Source of the DNA: a virus
DNA length: 43,851 nt
Strand: one strand, 5' to 3'
Virus genome (UHGV): UHGV-0172791
A model generated the notes under the pieces. It saw only the letters and a list, made by a program, of their open reading frames with translations. It was not told the DNA's origin and ran no database searches. Below are positions 2,191 to 10,719 of this stretch, piece by piece. How positions within the stretch are numbered: the first letter of the stretch is position 1; each line of letters opens with the position of its first letter. The position numbers and the translations under genes are program-made.

Positions 2191-4347
2191 ATGGGATTAC
2201 CTAGTCCTAAAAGAAGAAAACCTACTGCTTCGGAAGTTGCAGCATGGGCAAAAAGAATGATTGGCAGAAGAGTTGATGTAGATGGTTATTATGGCGCCCA
2301 GTGTTGAATCTAGCACCTTTGATGAGTAATCATCATAGCAAACTCCTCTAATTCATGGGAACCCTAAACAAGTTATGTTGTAGGCAATCATGAGCGAAGC
2401 CTATAAATAGGAACGTGCAACGACTAGTCGAAAGACGTACACTCAAGCGAGTGGAAACGGGGAGCAACCTAATAGGTTGATGATATAGTCTGAACATTCA
2501 TAGAAATATGAAGAAGGTGACAAGTGGCGATTGTCATCGTAACAAAATTGTGGGATTTACCAAACTACATTTTCAATAGATATTGGCATTTCAAAACAAC
2601 AGGAAATGCGATTGCTATGGCGTGGTATAGATATCCTAAAGGGTTCAAATTCTATAGGAATACTAGAAACTTTGTTCCGAAACCCGGAGATATGGCTGTA
2701 TGGGGTACAGGTTCTTTTAATAACGGTGTCGGACATACTGCTGTTGTAATAGGTCCATCTACAAAAAGTTACTTTACTAGCGTGGATCAAAATTGGATTG
2801 GTGCAAATGGTTATACAGGCTCGCCTGGTGCGAAAATTAAACATAGTTATAACGGTATAAGTGGGTTCGTCAGACCTCCTTATCATGCAGAAACTAAGAA
2901 ACCATCGAAACCAAGTAGTACACCGTCTAAACCCTCTAACGACAACACTCCTAAAAATACAAAAGAACAAACGAAACCTATAACTAAAGAAATTACCAAA
3001 GTTTCCTATACATCATTCGCATACGATTTAGACGATGATTTAGAATACATTTATCATTATATGGTTGAAGGTCAAAAGTTGATAGGGAAAGTAAAAGGTA
3101 TATATATCAAAGAGAGTACACATATGCGTTCTGTTGAAGAATTGTATTTACAACGTAATAAATATGTAAATGAAGATGAATATCCTCATGTATATATAGA
3201 CCGTGAGCGTGTATGGACGCCTAGACCTGATTCAGAAGAAGCACCAGAACATCCAGGTTGGCTTGTTATGGAAGTTTGTGGAGGACAAACAGAAAGCAAA
3301 CGGCAATTCATGCTCAATCAAATCAGAGCGTTAATCTACGGCGTTTGGTTGCTAAGTTGGAGTAAGGTAAAACTATCTGAATCATCAATCAAAGCAGACC
3401 CTAATATATGGCGTTCTATGAAAGATTTAATTAATTACGACTTAATCAAAAACGGTATTCCTGATGAAAGTAAATATAAAGAAGTTGAAAAGAAAATAAT
3501 AGGTTTATATTTAAAAAGAGATAAATTACTCACAGAAACGATTACCACAACAACTACAAAGACAACCATAAAGATTAAACCTAAAACTTCGGTCGATAAC
3601 CCTGAACAGAACGACAAACCGACAGACAAAAAAAGCAAAACAACAAACAGAACTTCGAATAAACCTCGTGTAGTTGTAGAGAAAAGTAAATATACTTTCC
3701 AACAAGCACTGAACGCTCAAATGGCATACGGTAAACCTCAAAAATCTTATAGTTGGGGTTGGGGAAATGCATCTAGGTCTCAAACGAGTAAGTATATGAA
3801 CCCTAACACTATATGGAATAGTTCAGTACAAAGGTATCAAATGTTAGATCTTGGTAAGTATCAAGGTATATCAGTAAGTAAGTTGAATAAGATACTTAAA
3901 GGTAAAGGTACTCTATCCGGACAAGGTAAAGCTTTCGCAGACGGCTGTAAAAAATACAACGTTAATGAAATATATTTAATTGCTCACGCTTTCTTAGAAA
4001 GTGGATATGGACGTAGTAACTACGCAAGTGGACGTTATGGTATATACAACTATTTTGGTATTGCAGCATACGACAATAACCCTAATGCTTCTATAGCATA
4101 CGCCAAACGACAAGGTTGGACGAGTCCACGTAACGGTATTATAGGTGGCGCTAAGTTCGTTAGAAAACAATTCTTTAATCAAGGAAAGAACACTTTATAC
4201 CGAATGCGTTGGAACCCTAAAAACCCAGGTCGCATGCAATATGCTACTGCGATTGAGTGGTGTAATTTCCAAGCAACAACAATAAACAGCTTATACAAAA
4301 AAGTAGGATTAAAAGGTATGTATTATATCAGAGATAAATATAGATAA
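2191..4347 (+). CDS. Tail-associated peptidoglycan hydrolase (CHAP domain + C-terminal glucosaminidase domain), split by an intron: exon 1 2191..2304, exon 2 2551..4347
   Basis: Exon 1 MGLPSPKRRKPTASEVAAWAKRMIGRRVDVDGYYGAQC ends at the CHAP catalytic Cys and is followed by TGA. Exon 2 resumes in frame with WDLPNYIFNRYW...GHTAVV (CHAP His). C-terminus NEIYLIAHAFLESGYGRSNYASG...YRMRWNP is glucosaminidase-like. The intact endolysin in this window has the same motif, YGYQCFDVANQYW. Confidence 0.7.
2305..2550 (+). ncRNA. Putative ORF-less group I intron (246 nt) in the tail hydrolase gene
   Basis: Upstream exon ends in U (..CAGUGU) and can pair with GCAC 8 nt inside the intron, giving P1 with the U.G wobble at the splice site; intron ends in G (..AAAAUUG) before exon 2 UGG; length is a multiple of 3; no ORF inside. 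Confidence 0.5.
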
Positions 4348-5921: not shown

Positions 5922-6200
5922 GTGTTATACATGAAAACAGATGTAGGTTCAATCGTTAGAACAATTGTGTTTATTTTAGCTTGGGTTAACCAATTTTTAG
6001 CTACGAAACATATTTCACCTATTCCGGTAGACGAAGTGACTATCAGTTCTATTATTACTGGTGCAATTTCTTTGTGGACTTGGTGGAAAAACAATAATTT
6101 CTCTCACGCAGCACAAAAAGGACAACAAAAATTGCATGAAGTTAAAGCAGGTACAGACTCAACGGGTGCTGCGCCTAGAATGAATGGAGATGATTTCTAA
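5922..6200 (+). CDS. Holin (dual-start motif MLYMKT)
   Basis: Two predicted TM helices (IVRTIVFILAWVNQFLA; ISSIITGAISLWTWW), charged C-terminus, immediately upstream of endolysin; two in-frame Met codons 3 codons apart (5922 and 5931) each with RBS. Confidence 0.7.
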   Translation: MLYMKTDVGSIVRTIVFILAWVNQFLATKHISPIPVDEVTISSIITGAISLWTWWKNNNFSHAAQKGQQKLHEVKAGTDSTGAAPRMNGDDF

Positions 6201-7603
6201 TGGTATCTGTTAGAACATACAAACAAGCTATAAGTTATCTAAAAAGTTTAGAGGGGAAAGCAGTAAATCCTGATGGTGCTTATGGATATCAATGTTTCGA
6301 TGTAGCCAACCAATATTGGTTATACCTATTCGGTCATACTTTAAAAGGTGTGGGTGCTGCAGACATTCCGACATGGAACAATTTTACAGGAGAAGCTACT
6401 GTTTATGAGAATACATTATCATTCTTAGCTAAGCCTGGAGATGTAGTGATATTCAACAGAAATTATGGCGGGGGGTATGGTCACGTAGGTATCGTTATTT
6501 CTGCCACTTCTAACTCTATAACGATACTTGAGCAAAATTGGGTTGGGGGTGCGTATTGGACACCACCTGAAGTCACTACAAGACGTACACATGGTTATGA
6601 CTTCCCTATGTGGTTTATCAGACCGTTCTACGCTAAAGAAACGACTAAGAACAAAGTTAAAAGCAAAACTAAGCCTGTTAAGAAAGCGAAAGCTAAGAAA
6701 GGTAAGAAAATCTTACTTGTTGCAGGTCATGGAAAAGGTGCTTATTCAAATGATCCTGGTACCGTAGCAAATGGATATAATGAGCGCGACTTTAACAGGA
6801 AAGAGATTATACCTAGAATAAAAAAACAACTCGAAAGTGTAGGAAATACAGTTGTTTTATACGGTGGAAAGTCAATGAATCAAGACTTGTATCAAGACAC
6901 ACTATACGGTCAACGTGTAGGTAACTATTCAGATTATGGTTTATATTGGGTTAAAAAGAATGTGAAACCTGATGTGATTGTAGAATTTCACTTAGACGCT
7001 GCTAGTCCACAAGCTAGTGGTGGTCATGTCATTGTAAGTGACAGGTATCCTGCAGACGATATAGACAAAGCGTTATCTAGCGCTCTAGGTAAGACAGTTG
7101 GTAAAATCAGAGGCGTGACACCTAGAAACGATTTGTTAAACGCTAACGTTACAGGACAACTCAATTTAAATTACAGATTGATTGAGTTAGGTTTTATCAC
7201 TAGTAAAAAAGACATGGACTATATCACTAAGAACATCAACAGTTTTACTAAACGACTTGCAGAGGCTATTAACGGTAGACAAATAAACGCACCAAAAAGC
7301 AAACCATCTAAAGCTAAAACAACGTGGGATTGGGCAGGTAAATTCACTGCTAACAGTACTATTAAAGTACGTAAGTCGCCTGGACTTAAAGGCACTGTAG
7401 TTGAAAGTGGTTCGTGGTTGTACAAAGGAAATTATGTTCCTTTCGACCAAGTAATCAAAAAAGATGGGTATTGGTGGATTAGATTTGAATATGTTCAGCC
7501 AGGCTCAAGTGACAAACATTTCTACTGCGCCGTTTGTAAAATCACAGACAAACAGCAAAAAATAAAAAATGAGAAATATTGGGGTAAAATAGACTGGAAA
7601 TGA
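6200..7603 (+). CDS. Endolysin: CHAP + amidase_3 (N-acetylmuramoyl-L-alanine amidase) + SH3b cell-wall binding domain
   Basis: YGYQCFDVANQYW / GHVGIV (CHAP Cys/His); ILLVAGHGKGAYSNDPGTVANGYNERDFN (amidase_3); C-terminal WDWAGKF...GYWWIRFEY SH3b-like; start overlaps holin stop (ATGA). Confidence 0.9.
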   Translation: MVSVRTYKQAISYLKSLEGKAVNPDGAYGYQCFDVANQYWLYLFGHTLKGVGAADIPTWNNFTGEATVYENTLSFLAKPGDVVIFNRNYGGGYGHVGIVISATSNSITILEQNWVGGAYWTPPEVTTRRTHGYDFPMWFIRPFYAKETTKNKVKSKTKPVKKAKAKKGKKILLVAGHGKGAYSNDPGTVANGYNERDFNRKEIIPRIKKQLESVGNTVVLYGGKSMNQDLYQDTLYGQRVGNYSDYGLYWVKKNVKPDVIVEFHLDAASPQASGGHVIVSDRYPADDIDKALSSALGKTVGKIRGVTPRNDLLNANVTGQLNLNYRLIELGFITSKKDMDYITKNINSFTKRLAEAINGRQINAPKSKPSKAKTTWDWAGKFTANSTIKVRKSPGLKGTVVESGSWLYKGNYVPFDQVIKKDGYWWIRFEYVQPGSSDKHFYCAVCKITDKQQKIKNEKYWGKIDWK

Positions 7604-7631
7604 TATAATTAACTTACCACGTCATTATACA

Positions 7632-7662
7632 AGGGTAGTCACTATGGCTACCCTCTTTTTTT
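7632..7662 (+). terminator. Rho-independent terminator after endolysin
   Basis: AGGGTAG-tcactatgg-CTACCCT perfect 7-bp stem followed by CTTTTTTTT. Confidence 0.6.
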
Positions 7663-7684
7663 ATGCAAAAAACTAAAAAAAGTA

Positions 7685-7713
7685 TAGACAAAAGGACAAT
7701 TGTCCTGTATAAT
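7685..7713 (+). promoter_or_regulatory. Sigma-A-type promoter with embedded perfect palindrome GGACAATTGTCC (candidate operator)
   Basis: TAGACA (7685-7690), 17-nt spacer, TATAAT (7708-7713) preceded by TG; the 12-bp palindrome at 7694-7705 lies in the spacer; RBS AAGGAGGTGA at 7726. Confidence 0.45.
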
Positions 7714-7739
7714 AAGAAGTGTAGTAAGGAGGTGACAAC

Positions 7740-7859
7740 ATGGATAGGTTAGAAAGAGAAGAAAAAAAGACAAATATCGCTAAAGCCAAAAGCGAAACTT
7801 TCCGAAATTATTGCATTGGCATTGCGACACTTGTCTCAGTGATAAAAATATTCTTCTAA
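7740..7859 (+). CDS. Small membrane peptide A (39 aa): charged N-terminus plus C-terminal hydrophobic helix
   Basis: MDRLEREEKKTNIAKAKSETFRNYCIGIATLVSVIKIFF; strong RBS; own promoter; paralogous to peptide at 7911. Confidence 0.4.
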   Translation: MDRLEREEKKTNIAKAKSETFRNYCIGIATLVSVIKIFF

Positions 7860-7864
7860 AATAG

Positions 7865-7896
7865 GGGGGAGGTTATCCCCTCCCTCATATTATATT
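7865..7896 (+). terminator. GC-rich hairpin / probable terminator between the two peptide genes
   Basis: GGGGGAGG-ttatcc-CCTCCCTC 8-bp stem (one G.U) followed by an A/T-rich tract. Confidence 0.4.
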
Positions 7897-7910
7897 ACGA
7901 GGTGATTAAT

Positions 7911-8009
7911 ATGACAAACTTAACTAAAGCAAAGATAAAAATATTTGCAAATTATACAATTGGAATTTTAGCATTAGCATTTGCTTTATATTTAATTATT
8001 TTTAAATAA
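7911..8009 (+). CDS. Small membrane peptide B (32 aa), paralogue of peptide A
   Basis: MTNLTKAKIKIFANYTIGILALAFALYLIIFK; RBS GAGGTGA; shares TN(I/L)xKAK....NYxIGIxxL.......IF pattern with peptide A. Confidence 0.4.
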   Translation: MTNLTKAKIKIFANYTIGILALAFALYLIIFK

Positions 8010-8026
8010 AACAATCTAACCTATCC

Positions 8027-8614
8027 ATGTTTAAGATGGAAATTCAAACAGTGAAGAAACTAATCAATTCAAACATTGACGCAACTACAATTGAGAGAAA
8101 CACAGGTGTTGACGCTTCTTCTATCAGACGTATTAGAAGAGAAGAGAGAACTGTCGAAAAATTATCTTTCGAAAAAGGTATCGCGCTTTTGCATTATCAA
8201 AAGGAGCTAACTAAAATGACTGAATTAAATGATAAAATCGTAGAAGTAGAAAATCCAAATAACATTGTAGAATTTGAAAACTTACAACAATTCTTTTCTG
8301 ATATTGAAGAAATGTCAAATGGTACATTTAAGGTTGATTTTGAAACTTTAGAAAAAGTAGAACATGATAACGGTAGTATATATTATATGGTCACTACGAA
8401 TTCGACCGAAGAAATTGAATTCAATGATAATGTTGACGATGAAAACATTGAAATTCTATATGATCGTTGGTTAGAAAAAGACCAGGGCGAAGAAACACAT
8501 ATCGAAAGTATATTCTTTGAAAATGAGCAAGATGCAAAAGACTATATCAAAGTTGTTTTAAAAGGTTATGACACATTTAAAGAATGTGCTAAAGCAATCG
8601 GCGTAATTGAATAA
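8027..8614 (+). CDS. Hypothetical protein with N-terminal HTH-like segment and very acidic C-terminal domain (195 aa; alternative start at 8216 with strong RBS gives a 133-aa acidic protein)
   Basis: NIDATTIERNTGVDASSIRRIRREER resembles an HTH; C-terminal 130 aa are D/E-rich; AAAAGGAGCTAACTAAAATG internal start context at 8216. Confidence 0.45.
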   Translation: MFKMEIQTVKKLINSNIDATTIERNTGVDASSIRRIRREERTVEKLSFEKGIALLHYQKELTKMTELNDKIVEVENPNNIVEFENLQQFFSDIEEMSNGTFKVDFETLEKVEHDNGSIYYMVTTNSTEEIEFNDNVDDENIEILYDRWLEKDQGEETHIESIFFENEQDAKDYIKVVLKGYDTFKECAKAIGVIE

Positions 8615-8623
8615 ACAAAAAGC

Positions 8624-8652
8624 AACCACGTTCTTATGAGCGTGGTTTTTTT
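8624..8652. terminator. Bidirectional rho-independent terminator between convergent ORF 8027..8614 and int
   Basis: AACCACG-ttcttatgag-CGTGGTT flanked by T-run on + strand and by A-run (T-run on minus strand) upstream. Confidence 0.6.
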
Positions 8653-8698
8653 ACGGAAGTATACACATTAAATATTAATCGAGTGTCTATACTTCCGT
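8653..8698. other. Candidate attP: 46-bp imperfect palindrome with perfect 11-bp inverted arms, abutting the 3' end of the serine integrase gene
   Basis: ACGGAAGTATA-cacattaaatat|taatcgagtgtc-TATACTTCCGT; symmetric about a central AT|TA; not followed by a U-tract on the minus strand so not a plain int terminator. Confidence 0.35.
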
Positions 8699-8705
8699 AC
8701 ATAAG

Positions 8706-10085
8706 TTAATAAAATTCTATATCGTTTATTTTAATAGAATGCCTGTTTTTAAGTTTTACATAATCTATGTCGATAGACTTAATAGCCATCTTAATAAAAT
8801 CTGCTTTATCTTCTAACGAGAATATCTTCCATGATTCCAACAATGCATTCTTGAATTTTTTTATCTTAGCTACATCTAGTGTTTTACTTGGAACTAATTC
8901 TTTTTGTTTTTCATATTCTGCGATTGTTTCGTCTGTTTCTTTAATCAATTCAAATAATTCTTCTTCTTGCATTAACCCTTTAGCATATAATTTATGATAC
9001 CTTTTACGTTGTTCCATAATTTTGTCTATATCAATAGTAACGACATCATCTTTTTGTTTTGTCTTTACCTCGTATTCTTCTAAGTCTAATTTAGATAGGT
9101 AATCGCGAAAAACTCTTAAAGCTTCATTTTCTGCAAAACCGAAACTTTCCTTTTTAACTTTACATGTGTTGCAATAATACGTTTTATAGGTAACATAACC
9201 TTTCTTTCTCTTTCTGGTTGCTGTGTTCATTGTTAATGTACCACCACATTTTGGGCAAATAAATTTACCTCTGAATACTGATACATGACTGACTATTTTA
9301 GTGTTGATTCTTTCTTCTAATCTTTCTTTTATTTGTTGATACATTTCTTCGGTAATAATAGGCTCGTGAGAGTTTTCTATAAATACATCTCCCCAAGTAT
9401 AATGACCTCTTGTAATAGGGCTTCTTAGCGCTCTCGTTATTGTTCTATCTTCCCACCTTTTGCCATTAGGAGGTGGTATATCTGAATCGTTTAATTTTCT
9501 AGCTATAGCTTTTGAACTATTACCTTTCATCACTTCGTCATATGCCCACAAAACTACTTTTTTATAATCATTAGGAATATAAGTGTTATCTACACGATCA
9601 TAATAAAAGGGTGGTGGTGTAAGTATCATGCCTTGTTTAATCGCTGCGCGTTTACCCATCATTACTCGTTCTCTAATCGTTTCACGTTCCCACTCTGCCA
9701 TAGCGCCAACTAATGTAACAAACAGTCTACCCATAGCTGTAGATGTATCATAAACTTCAGTAGCACTTCTGAATGCTACGTTATTCTGTTCAAATATCTC
9801 TAGTAAGTCCAATAAGTCACGTACATTACGTGTAAGCCTATCTAACTTGTACACTAAAACTAAATCAAACCGTTTAATATCGTTCATCATTCGTTGTAAT
9901 TCTGGTCGTTCACGTTTAGCACCAGAGAAACCAGCGTCGATAAATACGTCCGATACACTCCAGTCGTTTATCTCGCAAAATGATTTGAGCTTTCTTTCTT
10001 GTTCTTCAATAGAATAACCGTGCTCTTTTTGTTCTAATGTACTGACCTGACACGAACGTAAATAGCTACGTTCATAATTCATCAC
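8706..10085 (-). CDS. int: Large serine recombinase (phage integrase)
   Basis: N-terminal resolvase-type catalytic domain (..SCQVSTLEQ..DVFIDAGFSGAKRERPELQRM..DLVLVYKLDRLTRNVRDLLDL..), central recombinase domain, zinc ribbon CPKCGG...CNTC, C-terminal coiled coil; 459 aa. Confidence 0.9.
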   Translation of the reverse strand: MMNYERSYLRSCQVSTLEQKEHGYSIEEQERKLKSFCEINDWSVSDVFIDAGFSGAKRERPELQRMMNDIKRFDLVLVYKLDRLTRNVRDLLDLLEIFEQNNVAFRSATEVYDTSTAMGRLFVTLVGAMAEWERETIRERVMMGKRAAIKQGMILTPPPFYYDRVDNTYIPNDYKKVVLWAYDEVMKGNSSKAIARKLNDSDIPPPNGKRWEDRTITRALRSPITRGHYTWGDVFIENSHEPIITEEMYQQIKERLEERINTKIVSHVSVFRGKFICPKCGGTLTMNTATRKRKKGYVTYKTYYCNTCKVKKESFGFAENEALRVFRDYLSKLDLEEYEVKTKQKDDVVTIDIDKIMEQRKRYHKLYAKGLMQEEELFELIKETDETIAEYEKQKELVPSKTLDVAKIKKFKNALLESWKIFSLEDKADFIKMAIKSIDIDYVKLKNRHSIKINDIEFY

Positions 10086-10134: not shown

Positions 10135-10719
10135 TTATTCTGCTGGTGTATTTTGTACTTCTTGTTGTCGTTTAGCCCAACTTTCATAACCTTCATTTTT
10201 TCCTACCCAATATGGACCACCTACATGTGCGTTTGGATTGTCCCAAACCTTTTCGCTTTCTTTACGTGCTTGTTCATAATCTGCGCGACCATATCCCATT
10301 TGCGACTCATCATGCGTAGTAGGTTTTGTTCTATTCCATTCATCGATTTCAGCTTGCGACATATAACCGTTATTATTTTGCGCTTGTTGGTTATTGCTTT
10401 GTTGTTGAGTCGTTTGTTTTCCTTGTATGCGTTCATTGTTGCCATTGTTATCTTGTGCTTTACCATTATCATTTTTAGATGTGCTTTCTGATTCGTTGTT
10501 AGTAGTGTCGTCACTATTATTTTTTGATTCAGATTGTTTCTCGTCTTTAGAATCAACTTTCTTATCATCTGATTTTTTATCTTTCTTTGTATCGTTAGAC
10601 TTTTTATTTGATTTACTTTCTGATTTGTTATTATCATCTTTATTTGGTTTGTGTTCGTCTTGTCCACATGCACCTAACACTAATAAACTTGCAAATATTA
10701 AAAATAAAACCTTTTTCAT
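10135..10719 (-). CDS. Lipoprotein with K/D/S/N/Q-rich low-complexity region (194 aa)
   Basis: Signal peptide MKKVLFLIFASLLVLGACG with lipobox LGAC; long charged low-complexity linker; C-terminal ~50 aa aromatic-rich domain (GGPYWVGKNEGYESWAKRQ). Confidence 0.7.
   Translation of the reverse strand: MKKVLFLIFASLLVLGACGQDEHKPNKDDNNKSESKSNKKSNDTKKDKKSDDKKVDSKDEKQSESKNNSDDTTNNESESTSKNDNGKAQDNNGNNERIQGKQTTQQQSNNQQAQNNNGYMSQAEIDEWNRTKPTTHDESQMGYGRADYEQARKESEKVWDNPNAHVGGPYWVGKNEGYESWAKRQQEVQNTPAE

Follow-up and report, generated by a model that had tools for sequence, protein, structure and literature searches.

AcrIIA13, AcrIIA14 and AcrIIA15 are anti-CRISPR (Acr) proteins acting as inhibitors of SauCas9, and they have in common an N-terminal helix-turn-helix (HTH) domain that is not needed for inhibition and that binds inverted repeats beside the promoter of their operons (PMC7104187). 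For AcrIIA15, one inverted repeat lies between the -35 and the -10 element, where it is bound by a dimer of the N-terminal domain, and the promoter is repressed in vivo (PMC10901769). The AcrIIA13 family acts by mimicry of the protospacer-adjacent motif (PAM), and a protein of phage IME1318_01 (locus L003 in our set) has been listed as AcrIIA13 (PMC13147308). Here we analyzed a locus at positions 7664-8620 of the UHGV virus genome UHGV-0172791, a stretch of 43,851 nucleotides referred to below as the window, which comes from a temperate siphovirus of Staphylococcus epidermidis that is of the CNPx / vB_SepS_48 type (~92% identity over half of the first 25 kb). The locus is composed of a promoter, two small genes that we call pepA and pepB, a GC-rich hairpin between them, and a gene encoding a 195-aa protein. 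As a whole, it is best explained as a self-contained, horizontally shuffled AcrIIA13-type anti-CRISPR operon with two leader peptides, placed in a slot for morons that separates the lysis genes from the phage attachment site (attP), a reading that we hold with good confidence. The first-pass annotation of this DNA had proposed an undescribed module with a defense, abortive-infection or exclusion function. The functional part of that proposal had to be turned around, as the 195-aa protein is an AcrIIA13 homologue and the locus one of counter-defense, and the claim of novelty was too wide, since Watters et al. 2020 had already grouped AcrIIA13 with a neighboring "gene 1" in a single operon whose inverted repeats are close to the promoter (PMC7104187). 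This kind of operon was thus known, while the anatomy of the peptide pair and a covarying RNA helix, described below, were not found in the searchable literature.

The 195-aa protein is made up of a basic part (residues 1-63, pI 9.8) and a very acidic part (residues 64-195, pI 4.06, net charge -25). When compared to profile libraries, it gave no match in Pfam, sub-threshold noise only in NCBIfam and PADLOC, and a match to no more than one unannotated PHROG. The only hit among the PADLOC defense-system models was a partial match of the C-terminal domain to HamC (14 bits, E=0.011), which does not place the protein in a defense system. The protein search returned 64 homologues, all of them staphylococcal and all annotated as "hypothetical". 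Searches with phmmer against the Protein Data Bank (PDB) were more informative: the C-terminal domain matched 7ENI_C, described as "AcrIIA13 protein", with E=1.7e-40 over residues 69-194 and 54% identity, as well as AcrIIA13b (8K4M) with E=1.1e-24 and 41% identity, and the N-terminal HTH matched the N-terminal domain of AcrIIA15 with E=5e-4. An AlphaFold2 model built on the homologue alignment reached a predicted local distance difference test (pLDDT) value of 91.6 and a predicted template modeling score (pTM) of 0.81. Compared by Foldseek, the model superimposed on 7eni_C with E=7.6e-13, a target-normalized template modeling (TM) score of 0.93, a root-mean-square deviation (rmsd) of 1.3 A and 54% identity, and on 8k4m (AcrIIA13b) with a target-normalized TM score of 0.88, the AcrIIA13 fold being a beta-sheet with three helices. 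The N-terminal helices matched 8jfr, the N-terminal domain of AcrIIA15 on palindromic DNA, with target-normalized TM scores of 0.89-0.90 and an rmsd of 0.7 A, and a structural match to Aca11 was also found in the PDB. Carrying the phmmer alignment onto the residues that were proposed or mutated for AcrIIA13b (PMC13147308), Q25, E31, E39, Q87 and E94 correspond to Q88, E94, D104, Q153 and E160 in our protein, i.e., four of the five are identical and D104 is a conservative replacement.

Sequence and model together identify the 195-aa protein as a bifunctional AcrIIA13 homologue, with a predicted HTH autorepressor domain at about residues 1-63 and a predicted acidic Cas9 PAM-mimic domain at residues 64-195. 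The first-pass annotation did not recognize the family, a statement superseded by the AcrIIA13 match in sequence and fold; its suggestion of "a regulator or a DNA mimic" appears right on both counts, as the HTH resembles the N-terminal domain of AcrIIA15 and the acidic domain resembles AcrIIA13. On this basis, about 60 staphylococcal "hypothetical" proteins can be named AcrIIA13-family anti-CRISPRs, and the window protein, diverged as it is from 7ENI AcrIIA13 over the C-terminal domain, becomes a candidate Cas9 off-switch, possibly of different specificity.

Regarding the translation start of this gene, which we refer to as acr, the functional start is probably the ATG at 8036 (M4), which aligns with the orthologue starts MLIETVKK and MIIETVKK and lies 4 nt past the RNA helix. 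A second start may be used at Met64, giving the Acr domain without the repressor domain: this methionine is invariant in 21 of 21 sequences, and an in-frame Shine-Dalgarno (SD) sequence is found 9 nt upstream of it, with an anti-SD energy of -5.7 to -9.3 kcal/mol in all loci. A related case concerns the databases, in which the 132-aa "truncated AcrIIA13b-like" protein P0051 corresponds to this internal start called on an intact open reading frame (ORF) of 198 aa (locus L032, 1303-1899). Other "N-terminally truncated" homologues may likewise be annotation choices and not true truncations.

The promoter, a near-consensus one of the sigma-A type, sits at the same place in all related loci, and the published AcrIIA13-15 operons carry the same promoter type (PMC7104187). 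Its spacer contains a perfect palindrome. As an exact site, the AGGACAATTGTCCT-type palindrome is unique in the window, and alone it is not statistically remarkable, as ~0.97 matches with at most two mismatches are expected in the window. In the related loci, the palindrome is always found between the -35 and the -10 element, and its sequence switches with the recognition region of the HTH, for which five types were distinguished. The TGVDASSIRRIRRGER type of recognition region (window, L019/21, L027, L028 and L001) goes with the palindrome AGGACA-NN-TGTCCT, and the TGVSRAKIGRLRNGKN type with ACGTATACGT-like palindromes; the HTH of IME1318_01 is accompanied by TATCTCgtatGAGATA, that of S. petrasii by CTATGCcataatGCATAG, and that of S. 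simiae by ACGTTAgaaaaaTAACGT. We conclude that this palindrome most likely serves as the operator, to which the HTH of the last gene product is predicted to bind, as had been suspected for an operator of the peptide genes. This reading is convincing because the position is conserved and the palindrome covaries with the HTH type; a 12-nt palindrome in ~1 kb would be insignificant on its own. No second copy was found upstream of the -35 element, where IR1 of AcrIIA15 is located, or elsewhere in the phage.

The mobility of the operon is evident from its borders. Similarity to other S. epidermidis and sister phages ends at ~7664 on one side and at the terminator (8624-8652) on the other, so that the limits of 7664-8620 given in the first-pass annotation coincide with those of a cassette. 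The endolysins that precede an identical 195-aa gene with identical peptides are of at least four domain types, judged by their Pfam composition, and the identical cassette adjoins serine integrases, tyrosine integrases or different host junctions; loci carrying it, prophage copies included, diverge from the window right past the T-tract of the terminator, at ~8652. At the left junction, the motif TTTTTTTATGCAAAAAA (terminator T-tract, ATGC and A-tract; 7654-7676) is kept behind unrelated endolysins (L001, L003-L005, L007, L019 and L028) and may serve as a recombination joint for cassette exchange or as an UP-like element. The slot itself, which had been recognized from the start as a position for variable morons, holds other cargo in related phages. 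Phage CNPx (L030, 1105-2265) has a 386-aa hypothetical ORF in the same place between the endolysin and the serine integrase, and BE20 (L031, 1183-2469) has another cassette, with a peptide pair of sequence type 2, a 108-aa HTH protein that ends in a short acidic tail, and a number of very small ORFs. The slot is thus a hot spot for cargo exchange.

Exchange also occurs within the cassette. The peptide pairs fall into three sequence types that lack nucleotide similarity, and all of their members are 27-46 aa in length, basic at the N-terminus and hydrophobic at the C-terminus. Linkage of the pair to the HTH is retained even in loci that have another C-terminal domain or encode it by a separate gene. 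For example, in StauST398-3 and S. argenteus the pair is followed by a 64-aa HTH and a 66-aa ORF, and in S. xylosus it occurs with a 61-aa HTH and a 270-aa membrane protein. Conversely, P0002 bears a nearly identical Acr C-terminal domain on a different HTH, with a Gp111-like gene replacing the peptides. The window Acr is a diverged allele, with 64% overall identity to the closest form of the S. schleiferi/coagulans kind (P0003); a scan of genome contigs, with one genome per species, retrieved four loci. We thus regard the promoter/operator, pepA, the hairpin, pepB and the HTH as a chassis, and the Acr domain or a separate acr gene as its exchangeable cargo. This agrees with the search of Watters et al., in which the neighboring "GF5 gene 1" served as a guilt-by-association seed that led to AcrIIA14 and AcrIIA15 (PMC7104187). 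The peptide pair together with the HTH can be used as a marker for new Acr C-terminal domains, an application of the guilt-by-association idea of 2020 whose anatomy is now defined. A separate group of loci (L017/L018, 2516-3576, and L034, L038 and L039 from IMG/VR) carries a Phage_Gp111-like gene of 157-161 aa instead of the two peptides. L017/L018 combine a different HTH with a nearly identical Acr C-terminal domain, the IMG/VR members are more distant acr homologues, and the acr gene has its own SD in all of them.

The second characteristic of the operon is a long-range RNA helix. A repeat search showed that the 17 nt spanning the pepA start codon are perfectly complementary to the 17 nt that span the ATG at 8027 and end shortly before the acr start (Table 1). 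In an alignment of six type 1 loci, 7 of the 17 pairs were changed on both sides in a compensatory manner, and 12 core pairs were intact in all six sequences. None of 500 shuffles reached the observed covariation, and sliding the 3′ partner by 1-3 columns left zero or one such pair. In S. xylosus, for instance, ATGGATAGGTTA is changed to GTGAACCGTTTA and the partner to TAAACGGTTCAC. RNAalifold predicted the same helix independently, and it is present in both the minimum-free-energy and the centroid structure of the window RNA (7720-8060; -81.4 kcal/mol, z = -5.4). An alignment-free comparison of the curated peptide-bearing loci of all three types gave the same picture: in 13 of 13, the pepA start region has its longest complement (9-17 nt) over a stretch that holds the pepA start codon, and in 13 of 13 a gap of 4-8 nt separates the end of the 3′ arm from the start of an ORF lying downstream. 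By eye, S. schweitzeri (L006) fits this pattern too. We considered whether the 17-nt inverted repeat could be a site of DNA inversion or the ends of a transposon and rejected this, as all loci have the same orientation and the arms differ between lineages yet stay complementary and always contain a start codon. Covariation thus supports an mRNA structure that pairs the pepA start with the initiation region of acr (of pepB in type 2). In the searchable literature, we did not find a peptide-pair anatomy with a covarying helix to an Acr/repressor start lacking an SD.

The ribosome-binding signals on the two sides of the helix are very different. The SD of pepA is strong, with an anti-SD duplex energy of -17.4 kcal/mol in the window and -13 to -17 in all related loci, while the acr start region of the window lacks an SD (+1.8 kcal/mol). 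The ORF behind the 3′ arm is the HTH/acr gene in types 1 and 3 (+1.9 to -2.9 kcal/mol) and pepB in type 2 (-0.3 to -0.5), in which the acr gene reaches -11. Wherever SD strength was computed, the ORF behind the 3′ arm lacks an SD (at least -3 kcal/mol, compared with -9 to -17 for the others), and L001 agrees by eye. Homologues of acr without upstream peptides (L017 and many IMG/VR loci) carry an SD of their own.

Taking these elements together, the operon could work as follows. As shown for the family, the near-consensus promoter would fire on DNA entry and in the lysogen, and the acidic C-terminal domain would fill the pocket that takes up the PAM duplex in a type II-A Cas9 (WED/PI domains), blocking the binding of target DNA; the N-terminal HTH dimer would bind the palindrome between the -35 and the -10 element and switch the operon off again. 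Both pepA and pepB would be translated from the same mRNA, ahead of acr, and the internal SD and ATG at Met64 may add free Acr domain without the repressor domain. In phage T4 genes 38 and 25, the SD and the AUG are separated by a helix that brings them to working distance. A similar split ribosome-binding site would allow the SD of pepA to serve the downstream acr start as well, through a hand-over in which translation of pepA is confined to the time of mRNA synthesis, the helix then closes when the 3′ arm has been transcribed, hiding the pepA AUG, and the single strong SD comes to stand beside the acr AUG. The bridged spacing fits in the window, where GGAGG and 4 nt precede the helix and another 4 nt separate it from the AUG at 8036, giving 8 nt. 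We prefer this hand-over since no ORF that follows the 3′ arm carries an SD of its own. The exact split-SD geometry was rejected as a universal rule, with a spacing of 8 nt in the window and L019 and of 11-15 nt elsewhere, and the model is kept as preferred but unproven. In its full form, the proposal is that the chassis is an unrecognized post-transcriptional control device, handing a shared SD from pepA to an SD-less Acr/repressor cistron, and that the peptides are a new family of membrane-acting early phage proteins (exclusion or anti-defense) made in a short co-transcriptional pulse; we advance it tentatively and regard it as rather doubtful.

Should the hand-over be real, it would add an intrinsic order in time and a control of dosage to the Aca-type repression. 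Expression of acr must be fast and then tightly limited, and the acr control described so far is transcriptional, by Aca repressors, or, for Aca2, exerted by binding of the repressor to RNA. A covarying helix that ties the acr start to that of a leader peptide would be a new layer of control.

Some observations count against what has been set out so far. The C-terminal domain is only 54% identical to a characterized AcrIIA13, and inhibition of Cas9 by the window protein is a prediction; the promoter has a single inverted repeat, compared with two in that of AcrIIA15; and the internal SD at Met64 could be a by-product of conserved Q-K-G/E residues. As for the hand-over, bridged spacings of 11-15 nt in the other loci are long, and a purely inhibitory helix explains the covariation equally well. 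Such a helix, of the MS2 Min Jou or hok fold-back kind, is possible, though we place it on the unlikely side. In the MS2 coat-replicase case, upstream translation opens a masked start. Applied here, the helix would mask the starts of pepA and acr, both of which would be made only while ribosomes on pepA hold the 5′ arm open, acr being reached by reinitiation after pepB, with the rest of the locus working as described above. The helix does cover both AUGs, 7740 and 8027, with strong covariation support; the pepB stop is only 17-26 nt 5′ of the acr start, and in type 2 the acr start follows directly after the pepB stop; and the bridged SD-AUG spacings are irregular (8-15 nt). On the other hand, an unmasked site would still need its own SD, yet the ORF after the 3′ arm lacks one in all three types while peptide-less acr genes have one. 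In addition, pepB of type 2 lies ~60 nt and a stable hairpin past the pepA stop, which makes reinitiation unlikely.

The peptides themselves are related to each other, as the residue pattern shared between them had suggested: pairwise BLASTP aligned 21 residues with 12 identities (E=2e-7). When compared with orthologues, the ratio of nonsynonymous to synonymous change (dN/dS) was, among five type 1 orthologues, 0.13-0.45 for pepA, compared against four orthologues, and 0.08-0.48 for pepB; changes were in excess at third codon positions, and an in-frame 3-nt indel separates pepB orthologues. Most likely, pepA and pepB are real protein-coding genes under purifying selection. Both families are confined to Staphylococcus and Mammaliicoccus. 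The pepA family is narrow, with 8 representatives in an exhaustive HMMER scan of 1.84 billion representatives, and the pepB family gave 13 matches, all staphylococcal; every member of either family is annotated as hypothetical. A tblastn search of phage genomes with the peptides retrieved StauST398-3 only. The window peptides had no usable match in Pfam, NCBIfam, PADLOC or PHROG, and neither did these libraries relate them to any holin, phenol-soluble modulin (PSM), type I toxin or defense family. Nine pepA and ten pepB homologues searched against Pfam, and the pepB set searched against NCBIfam, gave nothing at E<=1 beyond scattered noise. According to its sequence, pepB has a short basic N-terminus and a hydrophobic C-terminal helix of ~20 residues (maximum Kyte-Doolittle hydropathy of 2.38 over 17 residues) and is predicted to be inserted in the membrane. 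The hydrophobic stretch of pepA runs over no more than 16-17 residues, one of them an internal Lys, and includes Glu residues in type 2, so that its insertion is uncertain. The peptides are the sole conserved members of these operons without an assigned role; as a best guess, they would act on the membrane, as early or lysogenic proteins, and the RNA switch would limit their dose. Some pepA variants from S. aureus, S. argenteus and S. schweitzeri (P0081, P0105, P0107, P0109 and P0113) lack their stop codon, so that the reading frame runs on through the hairpin, in some cases as an in-frame fusion to pepB; these are either decaying copies or natural fusion forms.

The RNA between the two arms is highly structured as well. 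A GC-rich stem of differing sequence is found 0-6 nt past the pepA stop, or overlapping it, in every related locus. In the window, the segment 7857-7913, which comprises this hairpin and a small stem pairing UCCCUC past the hairpin with the SD of pepB, folds with -19.6 kcal/mol. The hairpin was rejected as a canonical terminator, as most loci have no U-tract on either strand. Extra stems within the pepA coding region (7771-7839) show compensatory changes, e.g., GC to AU in 3 of 6 aligned sequences, and the entire pepA-pepB RNA is unusually structured. The z value of -5.4 for the pepA-pepB region and the further covarying stems inside pepA would suit an explanation in which the peptide ORFs act in cis only, as leader ORFs that load ribosomes and shape an RNA switch, their products having no function. 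Also in line with it, the pepA start is integral to the helix, the neighboring "gene 1" showed no inhibition of SauCas9 in a cell-free assay (PMC7104187; this gene was not matched to pepA or pepB here), and acr homologues work without peptides in other loci. We nevertheless consider it unlikely, as dN/dS is well below 1 in both ORFs even though RNA constraint should lower synonymous change, the same physico-chemical design is kept in three types without nucleotide similarity, and the paralogous pair is kept everywhere, with pepB lying outside the helix in types 1 and 3.

Another possibility, raised in the first-pass annotation, is that the peptides are membrane peptides that resemble type I toxins or serve abortive infection or exclusion; the operator, the mRNA structure and an antisense RNA would keep them in check, and acr would be a passenger. 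The peptides are indeed small, hydrophobic, duplicated and conserved, and a long-range helix sequesters the pepA start, a feature of toxin mRNAs of the hok or aapA1 type. There is also a promoter-like element on the antisense strand, whose -35 overlaps the pepB start codon and whose -10 abuts the hairpin; in 8 of 12 loci, drawn from the three sequence types, an element matching the consensus in at least 10 of 12 positions occurs at the same relative place. Based on sequence, this element is a putative promoter of unproven function: neither a conserved terminator nor an Rfam family was found on the antisense side, and transcription from it would start inside the hairpin. Rfam yielded no relevant family, and thus no antitoxin RNA, in the whole window or in a relaxed search of 7500-8800, apart from a group I intron elsewhere. 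The toxin explanation further suffers from the lack of similarity of the peptides to type I toxins, holins, PSMs or defense proteins in the libraries named above, Pfam and NCBIfam included. In Fst, TxpA, SprA1 and SprG, the polarity of charged and hydrophobic ends is the reverse of the charged N-terminus and hydrophobic C-terminus of pepA and pepB. Moreover, a near-consensus promoter, a leader of ~20 nt (the -10 element places the transcription start near 7720) and a perfect, exposed SD would make a true toxin lethal in a phage that has to lysogenize, and pepA occurs in read-through and fusion variants in S. aureus and S. argenteus. In view of this poor fit, we judge this explanation quite improbable.

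SHP, ComS and PrgQ are peptides with a basic N-terminus and a hydrophobic C-terminus, encoded upstream of a hairpin attenuator. That pepA and pepB are precursors of exported short hydrophobic signals of this kind, through which phages or lysogens would perceive one another and adjust the acr operon, is very improbable, as the resemblance in length, charge pattern, C-termini (...IKYWWGI and ...ILIKGGL) and promoter-peptide-hairpin layout, which recalls prgQ-IRS1 of pCF10, is accompanied by no receptor domain (the HTH partner is ~60 aa or fused to a Cas9-binding domain of known fold), no RRNPP-type gene nearby and no sequence similarity to such families.

The coordinates of the locus and its flanks are collected in Table 1. 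The features first listed between the endolysin gene and attP (promoter, palindrome, ribosome-binding site, both peptides, hairpin, 195-aa ORF and terminator) were all found where they had been placed.

Table 1. Features of the anti-CRISPR operon and its surroundings in UHGV-0172791 (positions in the window).
Feature	Position	Strand	Remarks
Holin, separate ORF of the phage	5922-6200		directly 5′ of endolysin; Holin_SPP1-type gene there in related loci
Endolysin	6200-7603		CHAP, Amidase_3 and SH3b domains
Intrinsic terminator of endolysin	7632-7654	+	terminator scan; with T-tract to ~7664, left cassette edge
Promoter TAGACA-17-TATAAT, sigma-A type	7685-7713	+	11/12 consensus matches
Palindrome GGACAATTGTCC	7694-7705		perfect; longer form AGGACAATTGTCCT at 7693-7706; within promoter spacer
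SD of pepA, AAGGAGGTGA	7727-7736	+	
Long-range RNA helix, 5′ arm AACATGGATAGGTTAGA	7737-7753	+	spans pepA AUG
pepA, 39 aa, first cistron	7740-7859	+	ORF list; charged N-terminus, hydrophobic C-terminus
GC-rich stem-loop directly after pepA stop	7863-7885	+	weakly terminator-like, without clean U-tract
Antisense promoter-like element TTGTCA-17-TATAAT	7889-7917	-	11/12 consensus matches
pepB, 32 aa	7911-8009	+	from ATG; mechanical ORF begins at GTG 7902
Long-range RNA helix, 3′ arm TCTAACCTATCCATGTT	8015-8031	+	spans ATG 8027; ends 4 nt before ATG 8036
195-aa AcrIIA13-family ORF (acr)	8027-8614	+	homology and model; functional start probably ATG 8036 (M4)
Internal SD (AAAGGAG) and in-frame ATG (Met64)	8200-8218	+	at domain junction
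Operon terminator	8624-8647	+	terminator scan; right cassette edge; faces serine-integrase gene
Large serine recombinase (integrase) gene	8706-10085	-	convergent; integrase domains

Between the operon terminator and the integrase stop, an imperfect 21-nt inverted repeat (TTTTTTACGGAAGTATACACA / TGTCTATACTTCCGTACATAA, 86% complementary, 8647-8704) is a candidate attP core. Adjoining the integrase gene, a 194-aa ORF (10135-10719, - strand) has a lipoprotein-type signal (…LLVLGACGQ) followed by a long low-complexity region rich in Lys, Asp, Ser and Asn, and may encode a surface or exclusion protein of the lysogeny module of the prophage. In the tail/late region, the group I catalytic intron (Rfam RF00028; 2294-2513, + strand; 93.8 bits, E=5e-23) sits between the ORFs 1720-2052 and 2524-4347, presumably interrupting a gene for a structural protein or a cell-wall hydrolase.

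When compared to known systems, the Firmicute type I toxins (Fst, TxpA, SprA1/PepA1 and SprG) resemble the peptide genes in encoding short hydrophobic peptides on mobile elements, with a start sequestered by mRNA structure and possibly an antisense promoter. They differ in the opposite polarity of charge and hydrophobicity and in sharing no homology with pepA and pepB, whose expression signals are strong and exposed and which are embedded in an anti-CRISPR operon. The split SD of T4 and the coat-replicase control of MS2 are similar in that RNA pairing decides whether ribosomes serve a downstream start, an effect that is proposed for the helix described here. In contrast to T4, the "hairpin" in the window would enclose ~260 nt with two translated ORFs, its 5′ arm is itself a start codon, and one SD would, in our proposal, be shared in time by two cistrons.

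Likewise, the Aca-controlled acr operons (Aca1, Aca2 and Aca11, among others; PMC12658196) have a strong early promoter that is shut off by a small HTH dimer on a promoter-overlapping palindrome. In the window, however, the repressor is fused to the Acr, and the operon opens with two peptide genes; in the searchable literature, two leader peptide genes with a covarying long-range helix are not described for Aca operons. AcrIIA1 of Listeria phages is more loosely similar, through its bifunctional logic. The Listeria acrIIA1 locus is likewise situated downstream of the endolysin gene. A closer counterpart is AcrIIA15 (PMC10901769; 8JFR/8JFO/8JFU), which has a homologous N-terminal domain, and in which an HTH dimer represses the acr promoter and a C-terminal DNA mimic blocks PAM recognition, although its C-terminal domain is unrelated, its operator sequence is another one, and its promoter has two inverted repeats. 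Finally, compared with AcrIIA13/13a/13b (PMC7104187; 7ENI, 8K4M; PMC13147308), the window form is diverged, originates from an S. epidermidis-type phage, was annotated as hypothetical and has one promoter palindrome. The two have in common the fold of the C-terminal domain, which is clearly homologous in sequence, its acidic surface and conserved Cas9-contact residues, the AcrIIA13-15-type N-terminal HTH, the promoter inverted repeat, the upstream neighbor gene in the same operon, and the location of the gene in staphylococcal prophages at the end adjoining the host junction.

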